63,855 nt of DNA, filler included, from 4 parts of 4 records of this genome joined end to end with filler, not necessarily neighbours in it; one strand, 5' to 3'. Positions 2,603-55,368 are shown, counted from the whole stretch's first letter. Made by a program: numbers and translations. The notes: generated from the sequence alone by a model not told the origin.

Positions 2603-2624
2603 ACAGCAATTTGAGTTTGTTTGA

Positions 2625-3335: not shown

Positions 3336-3368
3336 ACTGATAATCCGGTGGTTTAGATTTGGTGTTTA

Positions 3369-4496
3369 CTATGTGTTCTTTAAGTCGTTCAGAATGATCT
3401 CAGCAGTGCGTGAAGCTACGCCCGGTTCTCCTATCATTTTCCGCAGTTCTTTTAGGTCCGCTCTCACTCTTTGTGCTGATTCCGGGAAGCTTACCCATTC
3501 ATGGATCTGTTCGTAAAAGTTATCAGCAGTGGCATTTTCGAGCAGATATTCCGGTAGGATAAGTTTGTCCGGGATAATGTTGGCGAGGCTGACGTATTTA
3601 ATATCGAGTATCTTCTTAGCTAAGAACCCGCTCAGCGCGGACATTTTATAAGCTACCAGCGTAGGTGTACCGATGAGTGCGCATTCCAAAGTGGCAGTGC
3701 CGGAAGCAGCCATAATCGCATTGGCATTGCGCATTAAACGGTATCTGTTTTCCGGCTGGTTGATGGTCACCGGGATATGGTCCGGCCAGAAATGGCGCAG
3801 CTTTTCTTCTTTGACTCCGGGTGCACGGGCAATTGAAAATTTTAAATTCGGGAAATCTATGGAAAGCCTTTCCGCTGCCGCTGCGAATTCCGGGAGCAAC
3901 GATGAAATTTCCTTACTGCGGCTGCCCGGAAGAATACCAATCAGGTTCGGGTCTGGATCAATGGTATCCAGTTCATCAAGGGGCATGAGGTCAAGAAGGG
4001 GGTGACCCACGTACTGGGCATCGACCCCGCGATCCTTAAAGAACTGTTGCTCAAAGGGCAAAATGCACAGAATTTTACGCACATGTTTTTGCAGGAATTT
4101 TGCACGTCCCTGCCGCCATGCCCAGATTTGCGGGGTAATGTAGTAGTAAACGGGAATATCCAGTTTGCGGGCGATCTTGACCAGTCTGAAGTTGAAGTCC
4201 GGGCAGTCTATGAGGATGATTGCCTTGGGACGTTCGGCTTTGAGGATATCCCCGATCTGGCCGAAAAGTCGGAGCAGCCGTGGGAGCTTGGGCAGGACTT
4301 CAGTCAGCCCTACCAGCGAAATCAACTGCATGGGATAGCGGATATCGCAGCCTGCTTCTTCCATTGCCGATCCACCCATACCCATTACTTTCAGGCCGGG
4401 GTCGCGCTCCATGAGTTCTTTTGCCAGTTTTGCCCCGTGCATGTCGCCGGAAGCTTCACCTGCGTTAATCCAGATAGAGTTATTTTTTATGGTCAT
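3369..4496 (-). CDS. lpxB: Lipid-A-disaccharide synthase
   Basis: AGEASGD, ID.PDFN, PQIWAWR, VGHPL, LPGSR, ASGTATLE motifs. Confidence 0.95.
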   Translation of the reverse strand: MTIKNNSIWINAGEASGDMHGAKLAKELMERDPGLKVMGMGGSAMEEAGCDIRYPMQLISLVGLTEVLPKLPRLLRLFGQIGDILKAERPKAIILIDCPDFNFRLVKIARKLDIPVYYYITPQIWAWRQGRAKFLQKHVRKILCILPFEQQFFKDRGVDAQYVGHPLLDLMPLDELDTIDPDPNLIGILPGSRSKEISSLLPEFAAAAERLSIDFPNLKFSIARAPGVKEEKLRHFWPDHIPVTINQPENRYRLMRNANAIMAASGTATLECALIGTPTLVAYKMSALSGFLAKKILDIKYVSLANIIPDKLILPEYLLENATADNFYEQIHEWVSFPESAQRVRADLKELRKMIGEPGVASRTAEIILNDLKNT

Positions 4497-18095: not shown

Positions 18096-20172
18096 TTATT
18101 CGAGAGTTCTTGCTACTTCGACAACCTGGAAGGCTTCAATTACATCACCCTCTTTAATGTCGTTGTATTTTTCAAGACCGACACCACACTCGTAGCCCTT
18201 GGCCACTTCCTTGGCGTCATCCTTGAAGCGTTTCAGCGAAGTCAGCGCACCGGTGTAGATAACTACGCCGTCACGCAGCAGACGAACCTGAGCATGTCTG
18301 GTCAGCTTGCCATCGACCACGTAACAACCGGCGATGACACCGACTTTGGGAACGGAGAAGGTCTGTTTGACTTCTGCCTGACCGAGGTACTCTTCCTTGA
18401 TATCCGGGGAGAGCATGCCGCCCATAGCGTCTTTGATCTCGCCGACCAGCTTGTAGATGATGTCGTAGAAACGAATTTCCACTTCTTCTCGTTCTGCGAT
18501 TTCCTTGATCTTCACAGTCGGTCTTACGTTGAAGCCGATGATGATTGCCTGTGAAGCGGAAGCCAGCAGGATGTCGGATTCAGTGATCGCACCGGCACCG
18601 CCGTGGATAACGTCAACCTTGATCTCATCAGTAGCCAGTTTGGCAAGAGCTTCGTTAATAGCTTCAAGTGACCCCTGTACGTCAGCCTTGAGGACAACGT
18701 TGAGGGTCTGTGCATCCTGATCCGGTTTGGAAGCGAGGAAGGATTCAAGGGTAACCTTGGATTTTCCTGCCAGTTCGCGTTCACGGTGCTTGAGCTTACG
18801 TTCCTGCGCAATACGGCGGGCGACTTTGTCGTCAGCTACGCAGATAAACTCGTCACCGGCTTCGGGGATGCCGTCAAAACCCTGAATTTCAACCGGGAAG
18901 GCTGGACCAGCGGATTTGATTTTGCGACCACGGTCATCAAACATTGCGCGAACACGGCCATGGTAGAGACCGCAGACAAAGGGATCACCCTGGTTGATGG
19001 TACCTTCCTGAATGAGGACGGTTCCAACAGGACCACGGCCCTTGTCGAGTTTTGCTTCAACGATGTTACCGCGAGCACCCTTATCCGGGTTGGCTTTGAG
19101 TTCGAGAACTTCAGCCTGCAGCTGAACCATTTCGAGCAGGTTGTCGAGACCGGTTCTCTGTTTTGCTGAAACAGGAACGAACATGGTGTCGCCGCCCCAG
19201 TCTTCGGGAACGAGGTCGAACTCAGCAAGTTCACGCTGTACGCGTTCAGGATTGGCACCTTCTTTATCCATCTTGTTGACTGCAACAACGATGGGTACGC
19301 CGGCTGCCTTGGAGTGACTGATAGCTTCACGGGTCTGATCCATGACGCCGTCATCAGCAGCTACAACAAGGATAACAATATCGGTAACCTGTGCTCCGCG
19401 CATACGCATGGTGGTAAACGCTTCGTGACCGGGGGTATCGAGGAATACGATCTCACCGCGGTCGGTGGAAACGTGGTACGCACCAATGTGCTGAGTAATA
19501 CCACCTGCCTCGCCGTCGGTAACCGCACTGTGGCGGATAGCATCCAGCAGGGATGTTTTACCGTGGTCAACGTGACCCATGATGGTCACGATGGGCGGAC
19601 GGGGCTTAAGGTTTTCTTCTTTATCCACTTCGCTGGTCGGAATAAGCAGTTCTTCTTCGGAGTAAGATACGTTTTCAACTTCGTATTCAAACTCTGCGGC
19701 CAGCAGGGTCGTGGTATCAAGATCCAAAGACTGGTTAATAGTCGCCATTACACCGAGACCGAAAAGGGTCTTGATGAGTTCCTGAGCTTTAAGTCCCATC
19801 TGGTGGGCCATGTCGGAAAGGCGGATAGCTTCGTTGAACTTGATTTTACGTTTTGCAGCCTTGAGAGGTTTCTGAACAACAGGAGCCTGTTCAATACGGT
19901 TCTTACCTTTCTTGCCTCTTTTTTTGCCGCGAAACTTACTTTCAAGTTCTCTTTCGTGATCGTTCTTGCGGTGATCTTTACCGAATTCAACGACGCGTCT
20001 ATCTTTTTTGAATTTTTTCTTCTTGCTCTGATCATTGCCGGGAGCGGGAGCACCGGGAACGGGTCTACCGCCTCCTCCGCCGGGACGAGGACCACTGGGT
20101 CTGCCTCCGCCGGGACCGCCGGGACGACCTCCGCCGGGACCGCCGGGACGACCACCACCGGGTCTACCGCCA
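18096..20172 (-). CDS. infB: Translation initiation factor IF-2, 5'-truncated by the contig end
   Basis: [26 protein letters not shown]. The frame stays open upstream of the called Met, through Lys/Gly/Arg/Pro-rich sequence toward the gap. Confidence 0.97.
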
Positions 20173-20272
20173 NNNNNNNNNNNNNNNNNNNNNNNNNNNN
20201 NNNNNNNNNNNNNNNNTTAATTAATTAANNNNNNNNNNNNNNNNNNNNNNNNNNNNNNNNNNNNNNNNNNNN
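20173..20272. other. Artificial contig spacer (N-run + TTAATTAATTAA)
   Basis: Stop-codon linker flanked by Ns; composition and taxonomy change across it. Confidence 0.98.
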
Positions 20273-23200
20273 AATCTGAGCAATCCCGATTCGTTGTTTC
20301 ATACCCCCCGAGAAAGAGCCGATTTTGTCGTCTTTACGATCGTACATATGTACACTTTTTAGTACATATTCCAAACGTTCGTTTCTTGTCTTGTTGTCTT
20401 TGATTCCTTTTAATATGGATTGATAATCAAGAAAATCCCAGGCCGACATATTCTCATAAGTTCCGAAGGCCTGTGGCAGATAACCGATTAATCCCTGCAG
20501 TTCTTCTCTGTATTTTTGAGTATCTTTTCCATTTATCCAGATCTTTCCGTAGCTCTGTTCCAGTATTCCGCAAATAATTCTCATCATCGTCGATTTCCCT
20601 GCACCATTAGGTCCAAGCAAGCCAAACATTCCTGTTTTTATTTCTAACGAAACGCCATTTAATGCGCGGAAAGGCTTTTTCCTTTTTCCTATAATTGGTA
20701 TTTGTCTAACCATTGTAAAATACCCTCTGCGCAAACCACTAAGCCGACCTTCTATTCTGGCGATATTTAGATTTTTTTGCTGAATGTAATCGCCTGATTT
20801 GTATATAATTAATAGTAGAAGCCAAATAATTCCTATAAAAATTACCATTCCTATATTATCCCAGCGGAGAAAGAATATAAACAGGAAAATTAATGGAGGA
20901 ACCCAAAAAACAACATTCCCAATAATCTTATTTATTTTTAGATATCCCTTTTTAGTTGTAGCCTCATATTTGTTTCTCAGTACTTGTCTTAGAGGTGTGA
21001 ACAATAAAAAACCAAGGAAATAAACGACATGAGATAAAACCCACATCCAAAGGTTGTTGTCGAGGTAGAAGAAAGTAAAGTAAACAACAAAAACGAAAAG
21101 TGGGATTTGCCAAATCAGATCGTAAAAGTCGCGAATTGATTTATAATCTTTCAGGAGGCCAGCTCGTTTTCTGATATTGATTCCCGATTTCCATTCGCGT
21201 ACAAATCTGCTATCGCGATCGTAAATTTTAACTAATCTTCTGATTTTAATTGTAATCGGTTCGTCTTCGTCGATTACTTTTGTATTGGCTTGTCGTAAAC
21301 TTGTCATAATAAATGCTGTTACTCCCGGAATTAAAATTACCAGAATCATAAAATCGAGCATCTGCCATACTAAATCGTCGACTTCAAAATAGATGTAAAT
21401 TGCACCGACAATAAAAAGTATTAACTGACCAGCTTTTAACATCCAGTTTAGCGATTTCATCCAATTCAGTGTATTTTCCAGTCCGGAATATAATGTAGGA
21501 ATAAAAACAAGAGTAAGAATTGTACTGAATGCCAGACCACCAATAACTACAATTGCGAATGGAGCTCCAATCATGCCAACATATTCCGATTGTCCCATGG
21601 CCAGCGGCATCATAGCAACGATGGTAGTTATTGCTGTAATTAAAATAGGACGAACCCTGGAAAGCCCGGCAGTGATTAATGCCCGCGATTTTCTATGGCC
21701 TCTTTTTCTGAGAATATTGGTATAGTCTATAAGAATAATACCGTTGTTTACCACAATTCCCAGTAAAATCAGAAATCCCATTAATGTATTAGCCGATAGC
21801 AAACCGTTACCTGTAAATAGTAAAGCAAGCAGAGAGCCAATTGCTGCCAATGGTATCGAAAACATTAAAACAAAAGGTGTTATTAATGATTCAAATACCG
21901 ATGCCAAAATCATTATAATTAATAAAAATGCAGCACCAATAAGAAAGTAGAATTCAGAGAATTGATCTTCTTCATGAATAACTTCGATGGCAATTCCGCT
22001 GGGAATTTTATATGAAGCAACAATTTCATCAATTTCCAGACGGTAAGCTTCCAGCAAATCTTTTGATTCTTCTGCCTCATCGACAAAACTATAAGTAACT
22101 TCAATTTGTTTTTCCTGGTTAACCCGATTTATGGATGACATACCTTCATCGTAAACAAATTCGGTAATATCATTCAAATCAAAATTAGCACCCGAGGTGT
22201 TGGTAATTTGCAATTGCTTAAGGTCGTCAATGGTTCTCTCGTTTTCTTCATCCTCTTGGTCTTCTACTTTTTCTTTAATAATAATATCATATTCTTCATC
22301 TGCTTGTTTGAAGGTCGACCCGGAAGTTATTTCGCTAGGAAAAGAACTGAGTCCGGAGGAAATGGTATTCAACGAAAGATCGTTTTCTGTAAGCAACAGT
22401 TGATCGAAAAACATATGAACCTCGGGCTGACTACGGGATATATTTGTGCTGACATTATTTATTGATTCGAGATCTTCTATGAAGTATTCCAAATCTTCAG
22501 CAACGCCACTCATTTCTTCAAAATTTTCGCCTTTAATTACGATTCGTTCCTGTTCGGTTCCAATTCCTAAAAATGAGTTGAACCCCATGGCTCCTCCACG
22601 TCCTGCGCCACCACCGTAACGTGCACTTGAAGCTGGTGCTGTAAGCTCTACGTCGGCCACCCGGATATTTCTTACTCTTTCTTCGACATCCGATTTTATT
22701 TCGTCGATTGTTCGTTCGTCAATATCAAAATAGTCTTCTTTAAGAACAACTGTCAATACAGCTTCCTCGTCTTCGATATTGGAAACTATATCTTCTTTTT
22801 CCGCAATGTCCTCAAGCCTGGCTTCTACATCCGCAACAATCTGGTCGGCTTTGTCTAAGGTTGAACCAGAAGGCATGGTGACATACACCTGGAACTGAGT
22901 CTCCTCAGCTTCTTCTAGCGTAGAAATACTAACTGCAAGCACGCCAAAAACAGTAATAAAAAATACCACAACTGCACCAATTACTGTTGCTGCAGGTTTT
23001 CTCATACTTGATTTTAAGAGCAATATATAAATCTGTAAAATCCGGTTATTTGTAGTTACTTTTTCATAAAAAATATTGTGCGACGATTTACCTTTAAGTA
23101 AGAGATGCGCACCCATTGGTATTAATAAAAGAGCAACAAATAATGAGATTACCAGCGTAGATATAATTGAGATCCCGATATGATTTCCATAAAGTTTAAT

Positions 23201-24556
23201 GTTAGCATCGCTTGAAAAAACGAAGGGTAAGAATACTGTAATTGTGGTAAGTGTTGCAGCTACAATAGATCTCCAAACTTCTTTTGTCCCCTGTACAACA
23301 GCATTTTCTGCATCGTATCTTTTTCCTGAGAGCCGATAAATATTTTCAAGAACAACCACACTGTTGTCAAGCAACATTCCGATGGCCAAAACCAGTCCAA
23401 TTAATGTTAAACTATTCAGCGAAATATTAAATGCATAAAACAAATTAAATGCTGAATAAACGGATATTGGAATGGCTAAGGTGATGAATGATACAATTTT
23501 GAAATTCTTCAGAAAAATCCAAAGAATAAATATGGCCAATAGTCCACCAACGAGAGCTAAATTAATAATCTGATTAATATTTTCCTCCATGGTTTCAGCC
23601 GTGTTAGACTGAACCACAATCTGAACATCGTACTGGGCAAGTTCTTTGTTAAGCTCTAAAATTTTATCTTCAACCCGATGTGCCAAATCAATCAGGTTTG
23701 CCTGAGAATCGCCAACCAGTGTCATACTTACCGATTCGAGTCCATTCACACGACTTATACTGGTTCTTTCTTTTACACCAAAATAAACTTCGGCAACATC
23801 TTTCAAATAAATGGGCCCATCGGCAACAACAATATTTTCAATGTCGGTTACCAGTTCGTAGTCGGCCGAAACATGCACAAAATATTCTGTTTGAGCATCG
23901 TGTACATAACCAATAAAAGTTCTTTCGGTAGCTCCATTGTTAATTGCATTTCTGATTTGCAGTGGCGTAATATTGTATGCTTCACAAACTGCTGCGTCGT
24001 ACGTAATTTCAATGGATTTTTCACTGCCGCCAAACACTGTAACAGAGGCAATTCCATCAATATTCTCGATAGGAGTTGTTATTTCCTGGTCGACAATACT
24101 TCTAATTCTGTCGGCACCTTCGCTTCCCCGAATTTGCAATTCCATGAACTGCGAGGAAAGTTGTTGGGTATTTACCCTGTTTACAATTACTGTAAAATTA
24201 TCGTCCAGCGTACCGGCAACCTGATTTATTGTTTCCTCAAGTTTTAAGTAGGTGTATTTAAAATTTACATTTTGGTTGAAACTAACCTGAATTGAAGCTG
24301 ACCGGCTGTTTATCGATGTCTCTATGCTTTCAACTCCTTCCATTGTGCCAATTGCCCCTTCGATTTGAATTACAGCCTGGTTTTCCATGTAATTCGGATC
24401 GACCTCGTTACGGGATTGAATCTGAACAAATAGCATTGGAAGTTCAGCATTTGGTATTAACTCAACTTGTAGCTTATTATAGGAAACAACGCCTAAAACG
24501 GTTAGTCCTATAAAAAGCATACTGATGAGTATTTTTCTATTTATGATGAATTTCAT
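20273..24556 (-). CDS. RND permease fused to extra TM segments and a C-terminal ABC ATPase (3'-truncated by the contig end)
   Basis: First ~1025 aa form a full RND (GMLLDNSVVVLENI; GIVVNNGII; RVRPILIT). The same frame continues into GPNGAGKST, GYLPQ, FSGGMKQRIGIAQ. Confidence 0.9.
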
Positions 24557-24574
24557 CCTTTAACAATTCTGTTA

Positions 24575-27500
24575 TTAAACTTGCTCAGCTACTGATTTCT
24601 TCACAAAAAGACCTTTAAATCTGTCTAATACATCGTAAACACAAGGAATTACTACTAATGTTAATAATGTTGATGTTACCAGACCTCCAATTACGGCCAG
24701 TGCCATTGGAGACCTAAGTGCGGCACTTTCGCCAAAACCAATAGTTAACGGTAATAATGCAAGTATGGTTGTTAAACTTGTCATAATTATTGGTCGAATT
24801 CGTTGTTGCCCGGCTTGTAAAATGGCATCTTTCCGTGGCATTCCTTCTCGTATTAACTGGTTAATTCTATCGACCAAAATGATGGAGTCGTTAACGGCAA
24901 TACCAACCAACATAATTATACCGATTACTGCCATCATGTTTAATGTTTTACCCATGATAAAGAAAGTGACCACACTTCCTACAACAGCGAGTGGAATGGT
25001 TAATAATATGGTAAATGGGTGAATCAGAGATTCGAATTGCGATGCCATAACCATATAAACGAGAACGATTGAAAGCATCAATGCAAAGCTAAGGTTACTC
25101 ATCGATTCTTGTCTTTTTTCTTCTTCACCGGTTATCAGAATATTATATTCTGGTGGCAATTGTATATCGGCGGTAATTGTTCTGATATTTGCAGCAACAT
25201 GGTCGAGAGCAACTCCTTTATCCATTTGTGCAGTTACTTTTCCAATTCGGTTTTGATTTCGGCGGTATATTTCTTTTGGTGAAACGCCATAAGTAATATC
25301 TGCGATTTCATCGAGTCTAAAAATCTGGTCTCCTGAGGTTATGGTAAGCTCATTTACTTCGGCTAACGTTTTTTCAGGGACTTTAATCGTAATATCCTGA
25401 AGTTCTCCATCTTTTTCAAGCTGACCGGCTTCGGTACCTTCCAGCTGGTTTTGCAGTTGAGAAATTACATTACTTACGTCGATGCCATAAAAACCAGCTC
25501 TTAATCGATCGACTTCTATCTCGATTTCAGGAGCCCCATTTTCGATGGAAGATTGAATATTGAAAAGACCATTCAGTTCCAACATTCTTTCTTTCACCAC
25601 GTTCACAATTTCTTCAATCTTTTCCATCTCCTCACCGCGAATTTCAACAACCAGTGGATCTTCATCGGTACCAAGAATAGATTTCAGTGCGCTTTCTTCT
25701 TTAGAAAAGCTTAATTCCAATCCTTCGATTCCGGATGCCAGGTTATTGATGGTTGTGATAACGGCATCGGAAGAAATACTTGTGTCATCTCTTAATACAA
25801 TTTTAATTTCAGCTGTATTTTCTCCCTGGAATACTGCATCTTCATCGCTTTCCAAACCAGAAGAGGGGCCACTGTGTGAATATATTAATTCCAGATCTTC
25901 ACCTAAATAATCGGTAACAATTCTTTCTATATTTTTTACGGTTGACTCTGTGCGTTCAAGTTTTGTCCCTTCCTGAAGTTTTACGTTCATTGTAAATTCG
26001 TTGGTTTCGCTTTTTGGCATAAATTCGGTACCTATTTGTGGAACCAGCAAAACCGAACCACCCACCAGAATTGTGGCAATAACAATAACAATCCATTTTG
26101 CCTTTAATACTTTTTCCAGAAAACGGCCATATCCGGTAACTTTTACCGATTTATGTTTCACAGGAATAGTTTTGTTTTTATACAGCCTGTGGTACAACAT
26201 GGGGATTAAAAATATGGCAACAAAAAGAGAAGAAATAAGTGAAAATGCCACAGTCCATGCTTCATCTTTAAACAATTCACCTGAAGCCCCGTGTATATAA
26301 ACAATTGGTAAAAAGACCACAATTGTTGTGAGGGTTGATGCAGTTATTGCGCCACCGACCTGCGATGTTCCAGTAATTGCGGCATCTTTTGCACTCATTC
26401 CGCTTTCGTGATTCCGGAAGATATTTTCCATAACAACAATGGCATTATCGACCAGCATTCCTGCACCCAGTGCCAATCCTCCCAGGGTCATTATATTAAT
26501 GGTGAGATTATTAAAGTACATGAGGTTAAATGTTGCAATTATTGAAATTGGAATTGCGACACTTACAATAAGTGTTGTACCAAAACGGCGTAAGAAAATA
26601 AATAAAATTACAACCGCCAGCAAAATTCCTAATAATGCCGATTCCTGAACCTCGCCAATTGCCTGGCTAATAAAAGTACCCTGATTCGAAACAAGAGCTA
26701 GCTTATAACCGGGAAGTGCCTTTTCAATATCGGCCAATGATTCTTTAATTTGGTCGACCGCCTTAACGGTATTGTATTGTGTTTCTTTGTAAATTGAAAG
26801 GCCAATGCATCTTTGTCCGTTGATGTGAACAATATTTGTCGGTTCTTTATTTTGAATGGAAACCGTTGCTACATCTTTCATGTAGATAGGAGCCATTTCT
26901 ATATTTGGTTGGCCTCCGTCTGTTTCTGCTCTTACCGCTTTATACCCAACAATAAGATTTTCAAAATCCTCGACTTCCTCCAATAAACTGATTCCTTTTA
27001 CTACATACTGTGTTCCAAATTCACTGATTGTTCCACCCGATACACTTTGGTTAAAATTTGCAATACGGGTGCTAATATCGCTCATGGTCAGATTTTGTGC
27101 ATCTAACCGATAGGGATCTGTTTCAATTATAATTTCACTTTCTTCTTGTCCTGAAAGATCTACTTCTGCTACTCCCTCTAACCGAACAAGTTCATTTCGG
27201 ATATAATTCTCGGCCACTTTTCTTAACTCGTTCATATCGGTAATTTCGCTGTGAGTTAAGCCAAGAACCATTACCGCGGAAGTATTTGGGTCGTGCTGAG
27301 TAATTTGCATTTCGTCTACGCTTGCACTTAATGAACTAAGCGCTTTTTGCAGATTCAGAAATGCTTCGTCCATATCTTTATCCCAGTCGTATTCAACTGT
27401 AATTTGTGCTGTACCAACTTTAGAAATGGAAGAAACCTGAATAACATCTTCTTCCTGGCTTGCAAGAGATTCAATGTCTTCAACAAATTGTTTTTCCATC

Positions 27501-27676
27501 TCTTCGGGTGGTTTCTGTCCCGACGTTATCTCAACAAATATTCGTGGAGAATTAAGGTCGGGAAATAAGTCAACACCCAGTTTATCGAATGATATATAGC
27601 CCAAAAGAATAACAGCTAAGACTACCATTAAAACGGTTACCGGGTAATTGACAGAAAATTGAGTTAATTTCTTCAT
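24575..27676 (-). CDS. RND (AcrB/AcrD/AcrF family) permease
   Basis: 1033 aa; LGVDLFPD, GMLVDNAIVVMENI, ASQFES..HPF, RIRPIIMT, GGL.TSTLLTL. Confidence 0.93.
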   Translation of the reverse strand: MKKLTQFSVNYPVTVLMVVLAVILLGYISFDKLGVDLFPDLNSPRIFVEITSGQKPPEEMEKQFVEDIESLASQEEDVIQVSSISKVGTAQITVEYDWDKDMDEAFLNLQKALSSLSASVDEMQITQHDPNTSAVMVLGLTHSEITDMNELRKVAENYIRNELVRLEGVAEVDLSGQEESEIIIETDPYRLDAQNLTMSDISTRIANFNQSVSGGTISEFGTQYVVKGISLLEEVEDFENLIVGYKAVRAETDGGQPNIEMAPIYMKDVATVSIQNKEPTNIVHINGQRCIGLSIYKETQYNTVKAVDQIKESLADIEKALPGYKLALVSNQGTFISQAIGEVQESALLGILLAVVILFIFLRRFGTTLIVSVAIPISIIATFNLMYFNNLTINIMTLGGLALGAGMLVDNAIVVMENIFRNHESGMSAKDAAITGTSQVGGAITASTLTTIVVFLPIVYIHGASGELFKDEAWTVAFSLISSLFVAIFLIPMLYHRLYKNKTIPVKHKSVKVTGYGRFLEKVLKAKWIVIVIATILVGGSVLLVPQIGTEFMPKSETNEFTMNVKLQEGTKLERTESTVKNIERIVTDYLGEDLELIYSHSGPSSGLESDEDAVFQGENTAEIKIVLRDDTSISSDAVITTINNLASGIEGLELSFSKEESALKSILGTDEDPLVVEIRGEEMEKIEEIVNVVKERMLELNGLFNIQSSIENGAPEIEIEVDRLRAGFYGIDVSNVISQLQNQLEGTEAGQLEKDGELQDITIKVPEKTLAEVNELTITSGDQIFRLDEIADITYGVSPKEIYRRNQNRIGKVTAQMDKGVALDHVAANIRTITADIQLPPEYNILITGEEEKRQESMSNLSFALMLSIVLVYMVMASQFESLIHPFTILLTIPLAVVGSVVTFFIMGKTLNMMAVIGIIMLVGIAVNDSIILVDRINQLIREGMPRKDAILQAGQQRIRPIIMTSLTTILALLPLTIGFGESAALRSPMALAVIGGLVTSTLLTLVVIPCVYDVLDRFKGLFVKKSVAEQV

Positions 27677-27708
27677 GCTAATAAATTTTTATTAGATTAC
27701 CTGGAGTC

Positions 27709-28767
27709 TTATAGTTCAACTCTAACTTTTGAACGATTGCGCAATGTTTCAAATCCTTCTGTAATTAATCTGTCATTTCTTTCAAGCCCGTCAATTACTT
27801 CAACGTATTCCTGATTTTGAAGACCAATGGTAATGATCCGCATTTCAGCAGTATTATTTCCGCTAACAATAAATACGTATTTCCCCCGATTTCCTGACAT
27901 TATAATGTCTTTCGGAATTACAATAGTACTATCGCTTTGGGCAATAATAATATCTGCTTTTACAAACATACCCGGGCGTAATTTTAATTCCGGATTGTTT
28001 ATTTCAATTGTACCTTCAAAAGTTCTTGTTTCGGTACTTATCATTGGAGATATTTCGGTTAATGTTCCTTTTAGTGTATCTTCTGTTAAAGTATAACTGG
28101 TAACAATTGCTTCCTGTCTTTCCGATACATCAGCTAACCTTTTCTCAGGAAGATTTATTTCAAGGTACATTTTGCTGTAATTCATTAAGGTTACTACTTC
28201 GGTTCCGGAAGCAACGATTGTTCCTTTTGTATAATATGGTAAGTCAACAATAATACCGTTAAAGGGAGCAATCACATCCATTTTTTTAAGGTTGATAAGG
28301 GCACTTTCGTACGATGATTGTGCATTTAACATGGAAACTTCTGAATTACGTACATCGTATTGTGTAACACCTCCTTTTTCAAATAACGATTTTTGTTTTT
28401 CATATTCATCTTTTGAAATTTCAAGGTCCAGTTCAACAGATTCCAGTCCGATGTTATTTACATATTCTTCATCATCGAGATGAACAATTACGTCGCCTGC
28501 TTTAACCTGGTCGCCCAATTTAAAAGGTTTCCCGGTTCGGGGATTATTCATTACACTAAATTTACCACGCATTTCGGTAGCCAGCGTTGTTTCATGTGTT
28601 GCTTTCGCTGTCCCCGTGGTATTAATATATTCACTAATGTTTTGAAGCGTAACATTTTCAGCCGTAACCGGAGATGCCAATTCAGTCCCCTCACTTTGAG
28701 TTTGATTGTTGCAGGATATTACAGTAGCAACAACTGCCAGAAGTAATAGTAATTTTATATTTTTCAT
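27709..28767 (-). CDS. Periplasmic adaptor / membrane fusion lipoprotein
   Basis: Lipobox ISC; IAPFNG, LRPGMFV, G.......EV..GL. Confidence 0.92.
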   Translation of the reverse strand: MKNIKLLLLLAVVATVISCNNQTQSEGTELASPVTAENVTLQNISEYINTTGTAKATHETTLATEMRGKFSVMNNPRTGKPFKLGDQVKAGDVIVHLDDEEYVNNIGLESVELDLEISKDEYEKQKSLFEKGGVTQYDVRNSEVSMLNAQSSYESALINLKKMDVIAPFNGIIVDLPYYTKGTIVASGTEVVTLMNYSKMYLEINLPEKRLADVSERQEAIVTSYTLTEDTLKGTLTEISPMISTETRTFEGTIEINNPELKLRPGMFVKADIIIAQSDSTIVIPKDIIMSGNRGKYVFIVSGNNTAEMRIITIGLQNQEYVEVIDGLERNDRLITEGFETLRNRSKVRVEL

Positions 28768-28787
28768 TGTATAAGTTATTTTCTAGG

Positions 28788-30290
28788 TTAATTATTTTCG
28801 TTTATATACAAATCTGCCGGCATAATTGGCCGATTGGTTTCAAAATCGTATAACGATTGAATTTTAAGGTTTAACAATTCTAATTTATAATTTACTTGAG
28901 CCTGGGAGTAAGAGATTTGAGCATCAGATAATTGAGTTTGATATTGACTTAATTCCATACCTGTTAGTTCTCCGTTGTTATATCTTTCGTTACTTAAATC
29001 GTAAGTAAGCTGTGCGTTTTTTACGTTTTGTTCGGCAATTTGTATTTGTCTCCATTGATTTTGTAAACTACGATACACCTCACGAATGGAGATTATAATA
29101 TCTTTTTCCTGTTCTTCATAATCGATTTGGATAGATTCCATAGCTGCTTCCTGTGCGGCAACCCTGGCCTTTTTCTCTCCCCAGTCGAAAATTGGAATAT
29201 TAAATGAAACACCTACCGAAGGGCTTTTGGTAGGATTGTCGTACAAATTATTTAAAGCAGGGTTGTCGCCTGTTAAACCTAACCGCAAGTTCATTTGTCC
29301 CGAAAATTCATTACTTGCTTTTGTTTGTATCATCTGAAACTGGCTGGTTTCGATATCAATTTCTCTTTGGCGCAATTCCATCCGGTTTGCTAATCCATTT
29401 TCTATGGCTTTTTCTAATTCAACCGAAATGGCTTGCTCTGTGGTGAGTACTAAATCTAATATTGTAAAGTCCTGATATAAATCCATGCCCAGTGTTAACT
29501 TCAACTGGTCTTTTGCATTTTCGTAAGTAACGGATTGTTGTTCAACCGACGATTGTGCCTGCATCAGGTTTAGTTCTGCCTGGTATAATTCTTCCATAGC
29601 AACTAGTCCTGCGTCTGCTTTATTTTTTACAATATCATAATTTGCTTGTGTATTCGCCAATTCATCATTTGCAATATTCAGGTTTCTTTGTTCCATATAA
29701 ACCAAGTAGAATTGCTGGGTAACATTTCTTTCCATGTTTAAACGTTGTAAAGCATAACTAATATTTGCGTTTTCATATGTCAGCTCTAACTCCTTTAGTT
29801 CCATTTTTTGTCGGTTGTAGGTAAATAACGGCTGATTATAACTTAAGTACAATTCATTCGAAAACACTTCGCTTTCTGAATCATTTGCTGAAGAATTACT
29901 GCTCTGCCAGCCAAATGTATTATTGAGCGAGATTGTTCCATCGGAGAAAAGGATGGGTTGTGAAACAGTAAAAGTTGTATTCGTTTCAAGAGTCTCGTTC
30001 GTGTACCACTCCGAAACTCTTGTATCGAACTGTCTTCTTTGACTATAATTTACAGGATTTAAAGTTAAAGAGAATCTTGACTTCAAGGCAGCTCTTTGAG
30101 CCTCTAAACTTTTTTGTCTTTGTTCAATGTTTAGTTTAGATTGTTTTATACTTGGACTTTGTGTTTCGGCATACTCCAATGCTTTTGCAAGGGTAAGCAT
30201 TTCCTGTGCATTTATTCCAGACACGGTGAATGTCAAAATAAACCCTATTATTACAATCTTAAGTAACGGTTTAAGTTTTAATAAATTCAT
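28788..30290 (-). CDS. TolC-family outer membrane factor
   Basis: Signal peptide, QP(L/I)F and IPIFDWG repeats, RY..G motif. Confidence 0.9.
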   Translation of the reverse strand: MNLLKLKPLLKIVIIGFILTFTVSGINAQEMLTLAKALEYAETQSPSIKQSKLNIEQRQKSLEAQRAALKSRFSLTLNPVNYSQRRQFDTRVSEWYTNETLETNTTFTVSQPILFSDGTISLNNTFGWQSSNSSANDSESEVFSNELYLSYNQPLFTYNRQKMELKELELTYENANISYALQRLNMERNVTQQFYLVYMEQRNLNIANDELANTQANYDIVKNKADAGLVAMEELYQAELNLMQAQSSVEQQSVTYENAKDQLKLTLGMDLYQDFTILDLVLTTEQAISVELEKAIENGLANRMELRQREIDIETSQFQMIQTKASNEFSGQMNLRLGLTGDNPALNNLYDNPTKSPSVGVSFNIPIFDWGEKKARVAAQEAAMESIQIDYEEQEKDIIISIREVYRSLQNQWRQIQIAEQNVKNAQLTYDLSNERYNNGELTGMELSQYQTQLSDAQISYSQAQVNYKLELLNLKIQSLYDFETNRPIMPADLYINENN

Positions 30291-30309
30291 TTTTATTGTT
30301 TTTATTGTA

Positions 30310-33300
30310 TTATAGCTTTACAAATTTTACTGCATCGGCGTAGACCGAACTCAGTTTCGTGTCATTGGATAGTTCAATAATTGCAGTTCCTTCAGAGAAA
30401 CCAAATGTTCCTATCGGATTCCATCCTTCTTCTGTGTCGTTAGGGTTTAAAAGTTGTTCAACAGCACCATCATTACAGTGTATTGTAAAATGATAATCTC
30501 CGCTTTGACTTCCACCGAACCTAAAGCCACCTCTTCCACCTCTTCCTCTCATCATTGGATTGTTAAACATGTGATAGTGAACTTCATATGTGCCTGCTTC
30601 TTTAATGGGTACGTTCCATTTTGCCACTTGTGAACCATCGCCACTACTTACATAATACCCGGAAAGGATATAATTTCCATAAAACGCTGTATTTGTAATT
30701 GCGGTCCAGCTTGTAGGAGGTCTCCAGTTATTTATTCCTTCATATTTTAAGCTGCTTTCATCTTCTGTTATTAACCATTTCTCCAGCAGGCTTTCTTTTT
30801 TATTGTTTGTAATTTCGAAACCCGGATCTTCGTTATCAACGATAATCTCTCCGGGTTGTATTTTAAGAACCGGACTATCTGAAATTTTTTGACCTTCAAC
30901 CGGGGTTATTCTGGTGTCTTCTTCAATTTCCCTGAAATTCTCGGTTAATACCTGTGGAATATTTTGTGAAGTCATGGTATTTACCATTACCATTCGGGGC
31001 TCGGCATCTAAAATAAAGCTAACTTCTTTTGATTGATGTGGTTCCAGATAAATTAATTCGTTTACCATATCACTGGATCCACCGCCGCCACCTCGGCCCA
31101 TTCCCGGGAAACCGCCGCCACTGCTAAGCATAAATGATAACTTAATTAATCCTTCAGTTTCTGAGAAATTGGTTGCCTTAAGCGAAATCATTGTTTTCAT
31201 CATTTCGCCCGATTTAACTTTAACGGCATCGATTGGTGAAACAAGGAATCCAGGTAAATCTTTAGCGGTAAACCAATCGTCCATTACCGGAATTAATTCA
31301 ATACCAAATTCTTCTTTTAGCTTCTGGTCAAATTCTTCAAATGAGATATTTTTAAACCGGTACTCTTTTAGTATTTTTTGCAGAAATTCAGAAAACTCTT
31401 CTTCTCCTGCTTCGTATTGAATTTTGGAGAATAAATAATCGCCCTTTAATTTAATTACATCGTTTATAATATCTTTCTGTTCAATATCTGCTAAGATCTC
31501 TTCAAATGTATTTTCCTGTAATGCAATATTTGCTTTTTCTTCTCCGCTTAAACCTGTCATATTGCTCATGAAAATTGATCTGACATCAATATCCTGATTT
31601 TTAATATATGCTTCAAATACCCTGTTGGTAATTGGCCAGGAATCTGATTGTATATTATTTTGGAAATTATAAAAAAGCGGGAAAATAAAATACGGATTTT
31701 TTTCCTGATTAATACTGCCTGGCATTGGTGGCCCGCCCATCATCATTCCTCCGCCAAAACTGGTAGATTCTTCTTCTGTAAAGTTCCTTGTCATGCGCCC
31801 CAATACACTAATTTGAACATCCTTGGGAGACATTGCTCCTCCACGGTTTCCAAATCGTTCCATCCTTTTTTTAGTACCTTCAAAATCAAATTCCCCAATC
31901 ATATAACCTTTTTCAGGAATTAAAATTTGTTCGGGCTGAATGTTTTCTTGCAACGATGTCCACGAACGTTCATAGGTTTTCATTTGAGCGGGGACTTCAA
32001 CCAGCGATAACCTGTCGAAAGCATATTCCAGATTATATGTTCTTTCGAAATCTTCGAGGTATTCGTTAATAATACTTGGAATGGTATCGGAAATTTCAGT
32101 AAAAATTCCGGAAAAAAAATCGTGACCTTCGATAATCCAAATGCCATATTCTAAATTATCGGTTTCAAATTTTTTATATTCATAATTACCGATTGTGAGG
32201 GAAAGCTGTGTTAGTGAATTTTCATTATCAAATGTAAACTGTCCGGTTTCTGTTTCAGTTATTTTACCTTGCGAGATGGCTTTTAATCCGGGTTCTGTTT
32301 TAACTTTTAAATTATAATCGACAAATTGGTTATGGCTCCAGCTAACATCTTCTGAACTATATGTTACACCTGCTTTGGGGTACCAGGAAGACTCGGGTGT
32401 TAACATCACATAATCGGGAGTCAGAAAAGCGTAACGTTTATCAACATTAATTACAAATTTTCCATATTTCTCCTGAATAGTTTCTTCGTCGATGTCTAAA
32501 TAACACAGATTTTCATCAATCTTACCAGAGTAGTTAAAAATAACTTTTGATTCTTCTCCCGGACTCAGGTTAACGCCTTCTGAAATAAAAATTAAATGAT
32601 TTTCTCTTTTAAATTGAACCTCTTTTCCGTTATATTCAATTTTTGAAATTTTCAGTCCGGTATTTAAATTAAAGATCAATTGATTTAGAACTACATCGTT
32701 TTCGTTTTTAATCTCCATTTCAGAAGTTACTCCAATTGTTGCACCCTGATGTTCTAAATTTATTGTGTGGGTTAAAACTATTGGCAGCTTTTCTTTTACA
32801 TATTTATTGTTGAGTTCAATCGCACTTATTCGTTGTTCTTCTTTTTGTTTAAATTGATCGATGTGTCTGAATGCGAAATAACTACCAATGCCAATAAACA
32901 ACACACTAAAAATGAGGGATACATATGTCATTGTTTCGGATTGTGGTAGCCTTTTTAGCAGGAAAATAGTAAGAAAAATAAATCCGGTTCCAAGAAATAA
33001 ATAAATTCCCCTGTGATTTAGTATTACATCGGTATTTCCAAAGCCAACGATATCGGAACTCAGCATTGGAATATTGTAGGCCATGTAATCGAAAATATAA
33101 TAGAATTTTGCCTGCAGCAGGAACAGTGTAATTCCAATATATCCTAATACAAGTACAAATGTAATTGCTTGGTTTCTAATTACACTCATTAAAAGAAACG
33201 ATAATCCCATTATAAATATTAATGTGGGCACACTGATGGCAACCAGGTAAAAACCGTAGGAAATCCAGTTAACTGATGTATTTTGAGCAAGCATATTAAA

Positions 33301-33696
33301 GATTAATGCCAATGCCACAACCAGGATATTTAACACCAGAAAAACCTGTAGGTTACCCCATGTTTTTCCAATTACATATTCGCTATTGGTCATTGAACGC
33401 ATATAAATAACTTCGGTTGTGTCTAATTTTTTGTCGCGTTTCAAAAAGTCGGAAGCTAAAAAGACAGCAATTACCGCCTGGGCAATATTTAAAATTAACA
33501 GATTGAAGTATGGAATGGCACTCGGGATACTGCGAATGGCCCAGCTTTGTTCACCACCACCCTGAATAACCATTGCAAAGTTGATCCCAAAAAGTACGAG
33601 TATTGAAATGACACTAAAAATTCTGAAAAACCAACTCCGGAATAATGTTTTCCGCTCGTATTTAGCTATTGAAAATATATTGTGTAATGAAATCAT
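30310..33696 (-). CDS. Giant ABC-2-type permease with M1-aminopeptidase-like ectodomain and C-terminal Golvesin/xanthan-lyase-CBM-like domain
   Basis: IAKYERK.L.R N-terminus plus several TM helices; SWYP and M1-like beta region; IIVDNEDPGF...AG.YEV...YADAVKF C-terminal module; no HExxH seen. Confidence 0.7.
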   Translation of the reverse strand: MISLHNIFSIAKYERKTLFRSWFFRIFSVISILVLFGINFAMVIQGGGEQSWAIRSIPSAIPYFNLLILNIAQAVIAVFLASDFLKRDKKLDTTEVIYMRSMTNSEYVIGKTWGNLQVFLVLNILVVALALIFNMLAQNTSVNWISYGFYLVAISVPTLIFIMGLSFLLMSVIRNQAITFVLVLGYIGITLFLLQAKFYYIFDYMAYNIPMLSSDIVGFGNTDVILNHRGIYLFLGTGFIFLTIFLLKRLPQSETMTYVSLIFSVLFIGIGSYFAFRHIDQFKQKEEQRISAIELNNKYVKEKLPIVLTHTINLEHQGATIGVTSEMEIKNENDVVLNQLIFNLNTGLKISKIEYNGKEVQFKRENHLIFISEGVNLSPGEESKVIFNYSGKIDENLCYLDIDEETIQEKYGKFVINVDKRYAFLTPDYVMLTPESSWYPKAGVTYSSEDVSWSHNQFVDYNLKVKTEPGLKAISQGKITETETGQFTFDNENSLTQLSLTIGNYEYKKFETDNLEYGIWIIEGHDFFSGIFTEISDTIPSIINEYLEDFERTYNLEYAFDRLSLVEVPAQMKTYERSWTSLQENIQPEQILIPEKGYMIGEFDFEGTKKRMERFGNRGGAMSPKDVQISVLGRMTRNFTEEESTSFGGGMMMGGPPMPGSINQEKNPYFIFPLFYNFQNNIQSDSWPITNRVFEAYIKNQDIDVRSIFMSNMTGLSGEEKANIALQENTFEEILADIEQKDIINDVIKLKGDYLFSKIQYEAGEEEFSEFLQKILKEYRFKNISFEEFDQKLKEEFGIELIPVMDDWFTAKDLPGFLVSPIDAVKVKSGEMMKTMISLKATNFSETEGLIKLSFMLSSGGGFPGMGRGGGGGSSDMVNELIYLEPHQSKEVSFILDAEPRMVMVNTMTSQNIPQVLTENFREIEEDTRITPVEGQKISDSPVLKIQPGEIIVDNEDPGFEITNNKKESLLEKWLITEDESSLKYEGINNWRPPTSWTAITNTAFYGNYILSGYYVSSGDGSQVAKWNVPIKEAGTYEVHYHMFNNPMMRGRGGRGGFRFGGSQSGDYHFTIHCNDGAVEQLLNPNDTEEGWNPIGTFGFSEGTAIIELSNDTKLSSVYADAVKFVKL

Positions 33697-33713
33697 TTTG
33701 AGTTATTTATCAG

Positions 33714-34607
33714 TTATGCGTTAGACCATTGATTAAGTTTATTCTCCATAAAATGTACATAAGCATGTTCCAGGTTTGGGGTAATTAGTTCACCTGTAAA
33801 TCCATCAATATTTTCAGAAACAACCTGAACCTCCCAACCGGCAGCAACCGGGATAGTTGAAATTACCGGATATTTTTCATTTATTTCCAGGTATTCACTT
33901 TCAGAAGCTTTTATTAACCAAACACTACCTTCTGCTTCTTTAACCAATTGTTCCGGAGAACCTGCAAATGCAAGTTCGCCTCTATTTAATAATGCCATTT
34001 TATCGCAGGTACTTGAAATGTCGCCAACAATATGCGTTGAGAGGATAATTACCACATCGCGTGTACTAATATTCGACAGAAGATTTCTGAAACGTATTCT
34101 TTCTTCAGGATCCAGTCCGGTTGTTGGTTCGTCGACAATAATAATTTTAGGATCATTTATTAATGCCTGTGCAATTCCAAGTCGCCGTTTCATCCCCCCT
34201 GAAAGTTTGTTTGCATTTCTGTCGCGTGCCTCGTATAAGCCAACTTCTTCCAGCATTTGGTCTACTGCGGTTTTTCTTGCAGCGCCGTTTTTCATGCCGG
34301 CAAGCCGGGCTGTATAATCCAGAAATTCGTAGGTTTTAAGTTTTGAAAAGAAACTAAAATCTTGTGGTAAATAACCCAGCATCGAACGAATTTCTCTTCT
34401 GTTTTTTGCTAAATCCAATCCATCAATGGTAACTTTTCCGTTTGAAGGTTTCATTAATGTAACAAGTATTCGCATTAATGTTGATTTGCCAGCTCCGTTT
34501 GGTCCCAATAATCCAAACATTCCATTTGGAATTTCAAGATTTAAATTCTTAATGGCATAATTCCCGTTGGGATATACTTTGTTTAGATTTTCGATTTTTA
34601 TATGCAC
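33714..34607 (-). CDS. ABC transporter ATP-binding protein
   Basis: GPNGAGKST, GYLPQ, LSGGMKRR, IVDEPT.GLDP, STHIV. Confidence 0.95.
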   Translation of the reverse strand: MHIKIENLNKVYPNGNYAIKNLNLEIPNGMFGLLGPNGAGKSTLMRILVTLMKPSNGKVTIDGLDLAKNRREIRSMLGYLPQDFSFFSKLKTYEFLDYTARLAGMKNGAARKTAVDQMLEEVGLYEARDRNANKLSGGMKRRLGIAQALINDPKIIIVDEPTTGLDPEERIRFRNLLSNISTRDVVIILSTHIVGDISSTCDKMALLNRGELAFAGSPEQLVKEAEGSVWLIKASESEYLEINEKYPVISTIPVAAGWEVQVVSENIDGFTGELITPNLEHAYVHFMENKLNQWSNA

Positions 34608-34613
34608 GGTTTT

Positions 34614-34713
34614 NNNNNNNNNNNNNNNNNNNNNNNNNNNNNNNNNNNNNNNNNNNNTTAATTAATTAANNNNNNNNNNNNNNNNNNNNNNNNNNNNNNN
34701 NNNNNNNNNNNNN
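34614..34713. other. Artificial contig spacer
   Basis: N-run + TTAATTAATTAA. Confidence 0.98.
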
Positions 34714-35206: not shown

Positions 35207-35791
35207 CTAATATCTATTTGGGAAATGCTTTTTCCCCGCCAGCCATAAATAAATATCAATTTCTCTCAAGCTGAACCCTTCCAAAGAGTAGTACCGACTA
35301 AATTCCTTAATTATTTGAACGAATCTGCGATAGTTTTTAAGATCATCTTTTTTAAATTGACAAAAGGAATCCCGCCTCTTGAAATACATGAGCATTTTTT
35401 CTACATATGAATCATAAATTGGATAATCATTGGGTTTATGGTGACTACAATACTTAGTAGCAAAAGAATAGAATCTTCGGGTTTTACCTTTGATTTCAAT
35501 AGGTGCAACTTCATCAACCAAACCTAGACAACCTCGGTTAAGCTTCTCATCAATGTTCAAACCAAGTATATGTTTTGAAACTGAGTAAGTATCGTAGATA
35601 TTAGTACTATAAAAGTCATTGAGAGCACTAACCTTTAGCAACACATCTTCTATTTTGTCGTTCTGAGGACAAAACTTTTTAAACAGCTTTTCCAACGACT
35701 TTTCTTGAAGGGTGTAACTCTCCAATGTGTGCCAAAGCTCCAAGTAGCCCTTTACAACATCAATACTCGGGTTTTCTGGGGATGTCACCAA
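35207..35791 (-). CDS. Integron cassette 1, putative HhH-GPD/OGG-like DNA glycosylase-fold protein
   Basis: SFATKYC.HH.P..YPIYDS and C-terminal R.ID.YLW motifs; RBS AAGGAG. Confidence 0.55.
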   Translation of the reverse strand: MVTSPENPSIDVVKGYLELWHTLESYTLQEKSLEKLFKKFCPQNDKIEDVLLKVSALNDFYSTNIYDTYSVSKHILGLNIDEKLNRGCLGLVDEVAPIEIKGKTRRFYSFATKYCSHHKPNDYPIYDSYVEKMLMYFKRRDSFCQFKKDDLKNYRRFVQIIKEFSRYYSLEGFSLREIDIYLWLAGKKHFPNRY

Positions 35792-55268: not shown

Positions 55269-55368
55269 NNNNNNNNNNNNNNNNNNNNNNNNNNNNNNNN
55301 NNNNNNNNNNNNTTAATTAATTAANNNNNNNNNNNNNNNNNNNNNNNNNNNNNNNNNNNNNNNNNNNN
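55269..55368. other. Artificial contig spacer
   Basis: N-run + TTAATTAATTAA. Confidence 0.98.

Follow-up and report, generated by a model that had tools for sequence, protein, structure and literature searches.

Gene organization of the cassette

We analyzed a window of 63,855 nucleotides (nt), that is, the whole stretch of DNA at its full length, in which four contigs are glued by N44-TTAATTAATTAA-N44 linkers with joints at 20173-20272, 34614-34713 and 55269-55368. The subject of this study is an export cassette that makes up exactly one whole 14.3-kb contig (20273-34613), and in which a resistance-nodulation-division (RND) permease continues within one open reading frame (ORF) into the nucleotide-binding domain (NBD) of an ATP-binding cassette (ABC) ATPase. 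From left to right, the four pieces have GC contents of 0.49-0.51, 0.35-0.38 (the cassette contig), 0.41-0.46 and 0.52. Because the joints are artificial and the GC content differs, sequence outside 20273-34613 gives no context for the cassette, and the four pieces may derive from different organisms of one bin or metagenome. The cassette contig holds six minus-strand ORFs with intergenic gaps of 17, 19, 20, 32 and 18 nt, which bears out the six co-oriented genes spaced by about 17-32 bp of an initial annotation. Its products include a membrane fusion protein (MFP) and an outer membrane factor (OMF). The features are listed below in the order of transcription, with lengths in amino acids (aa), transmembrane domains as TMD and single transmembrane helices as TM; the models are AlphaFold2 (AF2) predictions.

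33714-34607, minus strand: NBD-A, free ABC-2 (DrrA/GldA-type) ATPase, 297 aa, complete (Pfam ABC_tran, 116 bits)
30310-33696, minus strand: TMD-A::PD, ABC-2 membrane domain plus a putative extracytoplasmic part of ~850 aa, 1128 aa in all (Pfam ABC2_membrane_2, Golvesin_C)
28788-30290, minus strand: OMF, TolC family, 500 aa (Pfam OEP, 151.5 bits in 3 stretches)
27709-28767, minus strand: MFP, periplasmic adaptor, 352 aa (NCBIfam TIGR01730 RND_mfp; Pfam HlyD_D23, HlyD_3)
24575-27676, minus strand: RND1, unfused RND permease, 1033 aa (Pfam ACR_tran, 750 bits, residues 5-1017)
21485-24556, minus strand: RND2 domain of the fusion, residues 1-1024 (Pfam ACR_tran, 536 bits, residues 2-1024)
20660-21484, minus strand: fusion linker, residues 1025-1299 (hydropathy and AF2 model of an orthologue; no Pfam family covers the linker)
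21296-21442, minus strand: TM13-14 of the linker (hydropathy)
21221-21256, minus strand: putative detached first NBD strand 'ITIKIRRLVKIY' with an invariant Tyr (sequence and AF2 model of an orthologue)
20801-21118, minus strand: TM15-18 of the linker (hydropathy)
20273-20659, minus strand: NBD-B, N-terminal 129 residues (Pfam ABC_tran, 78.5 bits, residues 1299-1427, profile positions 1-121 of 137)
20588-20614, minus strand: NBD-B Walker A (motif)
20471-20485, minus strand: NBD-B Q-loop (motif)
20291-20314, minus strand: NBD-B signature (motif)
20173-20272, no strand: artificial contig joint N44-TTAATTAATTAA-N44, at which the rest of NBD-B (~145 aa) and TMD-B are missing

The second RND gene was described initially as running in frame into Walker A, Q-loop and signature motifs, and ACR_tran and ABC_tran indeed fall within one ORF. 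The motifs quoted at that time are also present: GMFGLLGPNGAGKST and GYLPQ occur in each NBD, with SGGMKQRIGIAQ in the fused and SGGMKRRLGIAQ in the free one. The fused gene stops at the contig end right after 'GIAQI', in the region of the signature motif, with 1428 residues read; the last ORF as listed (20225-24556) has 1443 codons, the final 15 of which are N. A tblastn search of the window with the end of P0005, a full-length relative, matched only this truncated stub and the free ATPase.

Evidence for the RND-NBD fusion and its conservation

The fusion of an RND permease with an ABC NBD is real. When residues 1030-1428 of the fused protein (linker plus NBD) were used as the query, all 120 matches listed carried both PF00873 and PF00005 and were 74-82% identical; 109 of them measure 1533-1580 aa, and the remaining 11 are shorter, partial calls. 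Several lie on contigs of 6-8 Mb, and the isolates Maribellus comscasis, M. luteus, M. sediminis and Tangfeifania diversioriginum are among the carriers. Database names for these copies are generic ('ATP-binding cassette domain-containing protein', 'efflux RND transporter permease subunit', 'AcrB/ABC-type ... ATPase subunit'). Among the representatives of a library clustered at 50% identity, ~25-30 are 1550-1590 aa long and align with the linker from its beginning onward, at identities down to ~31%. Database proteins that consist of linker and NBD only were also seen (P0133, 526 aa, which starts with Met at TM13; P0158, 501 aa; P0137, 451 aa), and these may represent either a split version of the fusion or genes whose calls were cut short by frameshifts or contig ends.

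Gene order was compared across 77 loci from species-representative genomes collected with RND1 as the query, of which L076 and L077 were dropped as unrelated RND pumps (24% identity, no fusion). All six genes appear in the order of the window in 43 of the 75 retained loci, and none contradicts it. The RND-linker-NBD fusion is seen in 58 of the 75, with 56 of these frames exceeding 1500 aa; the other 17 loci end before the fusion point, and an unfused RND2 occurs in no locus. Going by record titles, RND1 identity to the window is 70-78% in Prolixibacteraceae genera, 53-59% in Rikenellaceae, Cytophagia and Cyclobacteriaceae metagenome-assembled genomes (MAGs) and in Agaribacillus, and 46-49% in MAGs labelled Aminicenantes and Eubacteriales.

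Distribution was sampled in 201 genomes from the family of Maribellus luteus (Prolixibacteraceae-type) and in 401 genomes spread evenly over the phylum. The 275-aa linker is found in 180 of the 201 family genomes, mostly within open frames of ~1570-1600 aa and free of stops inside the match. Five of the 401 phylum genomes have a linker match: four are strong, in frames of 1572-1586 aa, and the fifth is weak (E 1e-4), in a 149-aa frame without a fusion. Full-length matches to the 1128-aa permease are confined to exactly these four genomes, where each shares a contig with the fusion, and the other 21 phylum genomes with matches at E <= 0.001 have short, weak permease matches only (E >= 7.9e-8). 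Within the genomes searched, permease and fusion are thus never apart, which favors one functional unit.

Chimeric joining during assembly, read-through of a frameshift or gene decay could be suspected from two features of the locus: the gene touches the contig end, and the assembly graph branches at 20273-20305. The initial annotation had itself allowed that the fusion might be missing from related genomes, lack support from reads or end in a vestigial domain. Such an artefact is refuted, and we give it practically no weight, by more than 100 full-length database proteins with the same fusion (some on the 6-8 Mb contigs), by its presence in 58 of 58 informative loci and by the stop-free linker matches of 180 of the 201 family genomes. 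In addition, a 4806-nt contig built by another assembler (Logan, public DNA run X1, possibly the window's own source) spans the RND-linker-NBD junction, covering 20276-22300 unbroken with four mismatches and an even depth of 31.9. Four contigs of run X1 meet only at 20273-20305 (~30 nt), with depths of 80, 67, 31.5 and 31.9. Two contigs of ~1.39 kb from this run overlap 20273-20302 and probably carry the rest of NBD-B and gene 7 (described below); one of the two has the depth of 31.5, close to the 31.9 of the cassette contig. A branch point of the assembly graph in the conserved sequence of the signature motif thus explains why the cassette contig ends at 20273; a second strain in the sample, or an NBD paralogue, is the probable cause of the branch. 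Beyond the cut of the window, three full-length relatives have Walker B and D-loop (ILVVDEPTAGLDP), H-loop (STH) and a C-terminal domain of ~90 aa; full-length relatives of the fused protein measure 1555-1580 aa. The fused gene is cut by the contig end and not by decay.

A six-helix linker and a split NBD

The linker comprises 275 residues between TM12 of the RND domain and Walker A, and contains six hydrophobic helices arranged as two plus four. Since the helices are two plus four, NBD-B would stay on the cytoplasmic side. Between helices 14 and 15 lies 'ITIKIRRLVKIY'; at the same place the free ATPase has 'HIKIENLNKVY', directly before its core. Judged by this resemblance, 'ITIKIRRLVKIY' looks like the first NBD strand with its adenine-stacking Tyr. 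An AF2 model was built for the linker and NBD of the L022 orthologue, the closest full-length relative, from an alignment of the window with 48 of the 56 full-length fusions (49 sequences), and reached a predicted local distance difference test (pLDDT) score of 84.4 and a predicted template modelling (pTM) score of 0.67. In the model, helices at 14-34 and 38-63 are followed by a strand at 79-88, four helices over 126-236 and then the NBD core. The detached strand is predicted to pair with the sheet of the NBD core, and an NBD whose first strand is split from the core by four TM helices would be an unusual ABC architecture.

The alignment of these 49 sequences has invariant Trp, Pro and Phe positions in the linker, together with invariant Y88, K297 (Walker A), Q338 and the SGG of the signature (S392-G394). 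D415, E416 and H447 are conserved at >=90%, the row of the window lacking these columns. Fold matches of the model are ABC-2-type NBDs, including TM_1403 (4yer, E 1.4e-19), LptB, NosF (rank 10) and the NBDs of ABCA. Because the motif residues are conserved and the fold matches are of the ABC-2 type, NBD-B is taken to be under selection as an ATPase and is not vestigial. Foldseek on the linker-plus-NBD model returned no specific fold match for the six linker helices, its matches being dominated by the NBD.

A seventh gene follows the fusion

Clustering of flanking ORFs in the related loci revealed a membrane protein of ~239 aa directly after the fusion, on the same strand and at a median gap of 4 nt. 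By tblastn, this gene 7 is present in 56 of the 56 loci with a full-length fusion; its position in the window would be beyond the contig end. Because gene 7 directly follows the fusion, the fused NBD has its own candidate membrane partner. A comparison of the gene 7 profile with PDB sequences gave nothing meaningful. An AF2 model from 41 sequences (pLDDT 85.4, pTM 0.83) has an interfacial helix and six TM helices, and superimposes on NosY with a Z of 16.6 and a root-mean-square deviation of 3.8 A over 219 of 238 residues. All 50 structural matches listed are type V ABC transporters, among them NosY, ABCG, ABCA, ABCH, Pdr5 and a mycobacterial pump; Foldseek E-values against the same targets are weak (0.02-0.6). 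The model suggests a type V (NosY-like) ABC-2 membrane domain, TMD-B, and the cassette would therefore hold two NBDs and two ABC-2 membrane domains.

Two RND permeases with a non-canonical relay

ACR_tran is matched end to end by both RND1 and the RND2 domain, which are therefore full-length RND permeases. The two are 27-29% identical, and the closest solved relative of both is MdtB (9lyq_B), with E 2.9e-91 for RND1 and E 6.4e-56 for RND2. On the NCBIfam equivalog models, RND1 reaches 364 bits for MdtB (cut-off 1584) and 394 for MdtC (cut-off 1774), and P0005, an orthologue of RND2, reaches 239 and 233 bits respectively; all four scores are below the equivalog cut-offs.

The canonical proton relay of AcrB consists of D407 and D408 in TM4 and K940 in TM10. 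Aligned with MdtB, both cassette RNDs lack it, as TM4 carries D-N instead of D-D and the TM10 Lys is replaced by Asn. The TM10 pattern is N-N in 57 of 57 RND2 sequences; among 65 RND1 sequences, 33 have N then D and 31 have N then N. Both RNDs keep the Asp of TM4 as well as the Arg and Thr of TM11. An unfused RND of 1176 aa outside the cassette (Maribellus luteus L084, G001:C290:8687-14977) also has D-N / N-N. Three other RND paralogues of M. luteus have canonical D-D plus Lys, among full-length paralogues with motifs detectable by pattern. On these alignments, the D-N/N-N deviation is a trait of an RND subfamily and not a consequence of fusion. Because the unfused L084 and RND1 share the pattern, loss of the relay is unusable as evidence that ATP replaces protons, and it was dropped as a mark of an ATP-driven fused RND.

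Free ATPase, large permease and outer components

The NBD-A gene begins with a GTG start 6 nt from the contig end; since orthologues of 297 aa align with its product from the first residue, the gene is complete. Its Walker A, Q-loop, signature, Walker B (IIIVDEPTTGLDP) and H-loop (STH) are all readable in the window. The best NCBIfam models for NBD-A are drrA (203 bits) and GldA (189 bits), both below cut-off, and drrA is the best-scoring NCBIfam model for both cassette NBDs.

Membership of the 1128-aa protein in the ABC-2 permeases comes from its N-terminus: the first 300 aa alone score 28.4 bits on ABC2_membrane_2 (cut-off 27.2), the whole protein is sub-threshold, and 25 of 38 orthologues match the family. 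Its hydrophobic segments (~7) are confined to the first ~280 aa, with none past residue 276, so that we read the following ~850 aa as a probable large extracytoplasmic domain. An Atlas look-up of this non-membrane region gave only hypothetical clusters bearing Golvesin_C, the domain found at the C-terminus of the protein (50.2 bits against a cut-off of 31.6). Peptidase_M1 scores 25.7 bits, under the cut-off of 27.7, over profile positions 141-218 only, and neither HExxH nor GxMEN was found in the 1128-aa protein of the window; an M1 zinc aminopeptidase was ruled out on these grounds. A literature search on the architecture of the permease found nothing. Low-complexity inserts (Gly-rich, Gly/Arg-rich or acidic) are seen in this protein (30310-33696) and in periplasmic RND2 (21485-24556), such as runs that mix G with R or S and, in RND2, a stretch rich in E and D.

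The MFP scores 212 bits on TIGR01730 RND_mfp (cut-off 94.9) and is thus an RND-type adaptor. The OMF has NCBIfam matches to outer_NodT and type_I_sec_TolC, both below cut-off. The operon provides one MFP and one OMF for two RND paralogues.

Neighboring genes

In 18 loci (22 ORFs; for example L002:2347-2931), a gene for a ~195-aa protein is found ~200 nt before the ATPase gene and co-oriented with it. The protein has an N-terminal hydrophobic leader and weak, sub-threshold matches to Por_Secre_tail and DUF3244; other loci have other neighbors. The 194-aa ORF at 35207-35791, on the next contig of the window, was considered as a counterpart and is not a homologue. The left-hand contig of the window ends within an IF-2 gene (18096-20172, minus strand; Pfam IF-2, GTP_EFTU, IF2_N), whose Gly/Pro-rich N-terminal region runs into the joint and whose GC content sets it apart from the cassette contig. 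In several loci the cassette adjoins housekeeping genes. Downstream of it, loci of the Rikenellaceae type have ORFs that were named rimP-like and nusA-like from their sequence.

Relationship of the two NBDs

NBD-A and NBD-B are 40-47% identical over ~270 aa. A tree was built from 15 fused NBDs, 16 free NBDs and 18 rows of other ABC ATPases from M. luteus, two of which are the same gene. Fused NBDs form a clade with support of 100/100 and free NBDs one with 83/92; both, together with the paralogue L113, fall in one clade (94/89), within which fused, free and L113 NBDs form a trichotomy. The internal topologies of the fused and free clades mirror each other. The initial annotation called the two NBDs close paralogs: their kinship stands on the common clade and the 40-47% identity, and sister status does not follow from the trichotomy with L113. 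The cassette NBDs thus appear to be related paralogues that travelled together, a reading that stops short of making them sisters. L113 (G001:C333:159061-162909, ORFs 1447-2364 and 2367-3848) is a stand-alone pair of ATPase and downstream permease in M. luteus. Its ATPase is of the DrrA/GldA type, 45% identical to NBD-A and, in the tree, no more distant from the two cassette NBDs than these are from one another, and the downstream protein (>494 aa) has a weak ABC2_membrane_5 match.

Both NBDs are fully canonical in their motifs, with no degenerate site to mark an obligate heterodimer. Residual rate correlations were calculated for ten domains in 39 loci (45 pairs), as an exploratory measure in which pairwise distances are non-independent; the outcome is mixed and was not used to decide which ABC parts pair. 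The highest of the 45 values is that of RND1 and RND2 (0.40), whose genes are adjacent, with OMF-MFP at 0.35 and NBD-A/TMD-A at 0.27; NBD-A/NBD-B ranks fifth (+0.23), OMF-RND2 also lying above it.

Proposed mechanism and alternative explanations

We infer, at about an even chance, that the cassette encodes a type V ABC exporter module which is tied to an MdtBC-like heteromer of RND subunits, and that the two work as a relay powered by ATP plus the proton-motive force (PMF). Using ATP, NBD-B/TMD-B and NBD-A/TMD-A would extract or flip an envelope substrate, hydrophobic or amphipathic, from the cytoplasmic side of the inner membrane. The covalent tether would keep this ABC module against an MdtBC-like RND1/RND2 heterotrimer, which would take the substrate from the outer leaflet or the periplasm, the PMF then expelling it through the MFP and OMF. 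Having one fused and one unfused RND paralogue would reconcile a three-fold RND with a two-fold NBD pair, through either two fused subunits and one unfused (an NBD-B homodimer) or one fused and two unfused (NBD-B with NBD-A).

Several points weigh against this relay. The hand-over of substrate between the modules is pure conjecture, and proton coupling of the RND part of the cassette is assumed, in RNDs that both lack the canonical relay. The assignment of gene 7 to the type V (NosY-like) ABC-2 membrane domains rests on its predicted fold: it has no sequence match in Pfam, NCBIfam or PDB, and a profile comparison with TMD-A (hhalign) gave a non-significant E of 0.085. In the exploratory rate analysis, NBD-B and TMD-B have a residual correlation of -0.19. 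Finally, statements on the end of the fused gene and on gene 7 draw on relatives that are 75-82% identical to the window over linker and NBD.

The pairing of the ABC parts admits an alternative that concerns pairing only and is compatible with the relay mechanism. An NBD-B/NBD-A heterodimer on a TMD-A/TMD-B heterodimer, resembling ABCG5/G8, might be bolted to the one RND2 of an RND1(2)RND2(1) trimer; the initial annotation had likewise suggested that fused and free NBDs could heterodimerize. We take this as a serious possibility that falls somewhat short of even. It would explain why a strictly conserved cassette contains exactly two NBD types and two ABC-2 TMD types, and it fits the co-occurrence of permease and fusion in four of four carriers, with the other 397 genomes having neither, the co-diversification of both NBD clades within one clade (94/89) and, weakly, the rate correlation of the two NBDs. 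However, each NBD gene is followed by its own TMD gene, which is the usual layout of homodimeric ABC-2 systems; L113, the nearest paralogue outside the cassette, is an ordinary pair of an ATPase and a long ABC-2 permease; the trichotomy does not make the cassette NBDs sisters; and the motifs of both are fully canonical. Given the NBD-TMD gene pairs, the simple L113 pair and the lack of a degenerate ATP site, two homodimeric ABC modules seem equally possible as one heterodimer.

Other explanations differ from the relay in how, or whether, the two engines are coupled. NBD-B could, via the linker helices, move the TM bundle of RND2 and so replace or gate its proton-driven functional rotation, gene 7 and the other ABC pair being accessories. 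A covalent link of fixed length, aligned end to end over 275 aa in 180 genomes, would suit such a machine, as would the invariant Trp, Pro and Phe positions of the linker, the missing D-D/K relay in both RNDs and the first NBD strand predicted to thread between TM14 and TM15, by which NBD closure could pull on membrane helices. Yet D-N/N-N is also found in the unfused L084 outside the cassette, as expected of a subfamily trait; the TM4 Asp and TM11 Arg and Thr conserved in both RNDs leave a possible proton path; and the predicted type V TMD encoded by gene 7 adjoins the NBD and would be the normal client of such an NBD. We know of no precedent for an NBD driving an RND fold, and consider an ATP-driven or ATP-gated RND unlikely. 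Similarly improbable, in our view, is a dual-energized pump in which the ATP cycle of the tethered NBD is mechanically coupled to the RND cycle, driving or gating it instead of or besides protons; here a 2:1 or 1:2 RND heterotrimer would reconcile the three-fold RND symmetry with an NBD dimer. At the other extreme, the fusion might serve as a co-assembly tether only, two or three otherwise independent transporters with related substrates (an RND pump and ABC-2 exporters) being joined for co-localization or stoichiometry, with neither direct substrate hand-over nor coupling of energy. Gene fusions of pathway partners are common, and every module of the cassette owns a full set of parts. Against this simpler account, to which we assign a similarly low probability, the seven genes stay strictly together even where identity falls to 38-47%, in records whose labels are Bacteroidota, Aminicenantes and Eubacteriales MAGs, and a permease without the fusion was not found in the 401 genomes searched.

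Comparison with known systems and significance

The arrangement closest to the RND part of the cassette is MdtABC-TolC of E. coli, in which neighboring genes for two RND paralogues likewise share one MFP gene and one OMF. The closest solved relative of both cassette RNDs is MdtB, and MdtC and MdtB are the best equivalog-level models for RND1. MdtBC assembles as an MdtB2C heterotrimer. In contrast to MdtABC, the cassette RNDs score far below the MdtB/MdtC cut-offs, have D-N in TM4 and no TM10 Lys, and one of the two is extended by six TM helices and an ABC NBD, in an operon with two ABC-2 proteins and a second ATPase. MacAB-TolC and HlyBD-TolC resemble the cassette in uniting ATP hydrolysis, an MFP and a TolC-family duct in one export system; unlike it, they use a type VII (MacB) or type IV (HlyB) ABC fold as the only inner-membrane component. 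The ABC parts of the cassette are predicted to be of type V, its MFP is of the RND type and its inner-membrane core is a pair of RND permeases. A MacB-type or HlyB-type tripartite ABC pump was therefore rejected, given drrA/GldA-like NBDs, ABC-2 partners and the RND-pair core. With NosDFY(L) the cassette shares NosY as the closest solved fold to gene 7, NosF among the top fold matches of NBD-B, and the combination of an ABC-2 module with a large periplasmic component. It differs in that no sequence-level kinship was detected, Nos has no RND, MFP or OMF, and the periplasmic NosD is a separate protein.

For cooperation between an RND protein and a type V exporter, the mycobacterial export of phthiocerol dimycocerosate (PDIM) offers a parallel: according to PMC11539658, it needs both the RND protein MmpL7 and the type V ABC exporter DrrABC. 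As described there, MmpL7-DrrABC-LppX combines an RND with a DrrA-type type V exporter that has two different membrane subunits, in one envelope-lipid pathway that requires them all. The best model for the cassette NBDs is drrA. The mycobacterial proteins are separate, have one NBD type and no MFP or OMF, and MmpL belongs to another RND subfamily in unrelated organisms, whereas the cassette has RND and NBD in one polypeptide within a tripartite system that would span the outer membrane. By analogy, MmpL7 with DrrABC is the nearest functional precedent for joint action of an RND protein and an ABC exporter of type V in one export pathway.

We class the cassette as a type V ABC module joined covalently to a tripartite RND pump, which would amount to a new category only if its ATPase proves to act on the RND cycle. 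The initial annotation knew of no characterized RND-NBD fusion, and our literature search, which covered the searchable part of PMC (all but ~1.7 million articles, supplementary files apart), likewise found no paper on an RND-ABC fusion.

RND transporters, driven by protons, and ABC transporters, driven by ATP, are taught as alternative inner-membrane engines of tripartite systems. Here one RND and one ABC ATPase are welded into a single polypeptide that is kept with six partner genes, in 180 of 201 sampled genomes of one Bacteroidota family and in scattered other lineages. One may speculate that a cassette near-universal in one family, and with housekeeping neighbors, has a role in building the envelope rather than as an accessory drug pump. 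If the modules hand substrate over, the cassette would be a natural covalent two-step efflux relay, from the cytoplasm or inner leaflet to the periplasm and then outside, and a covalent version of the cooperation seen with MmpL7-DrrABC. With cultured carriers in Maribellus and Tangfeifania, it would offer a tractable model for symmetry mismatch, stoichiometry and the use of two energy sources.

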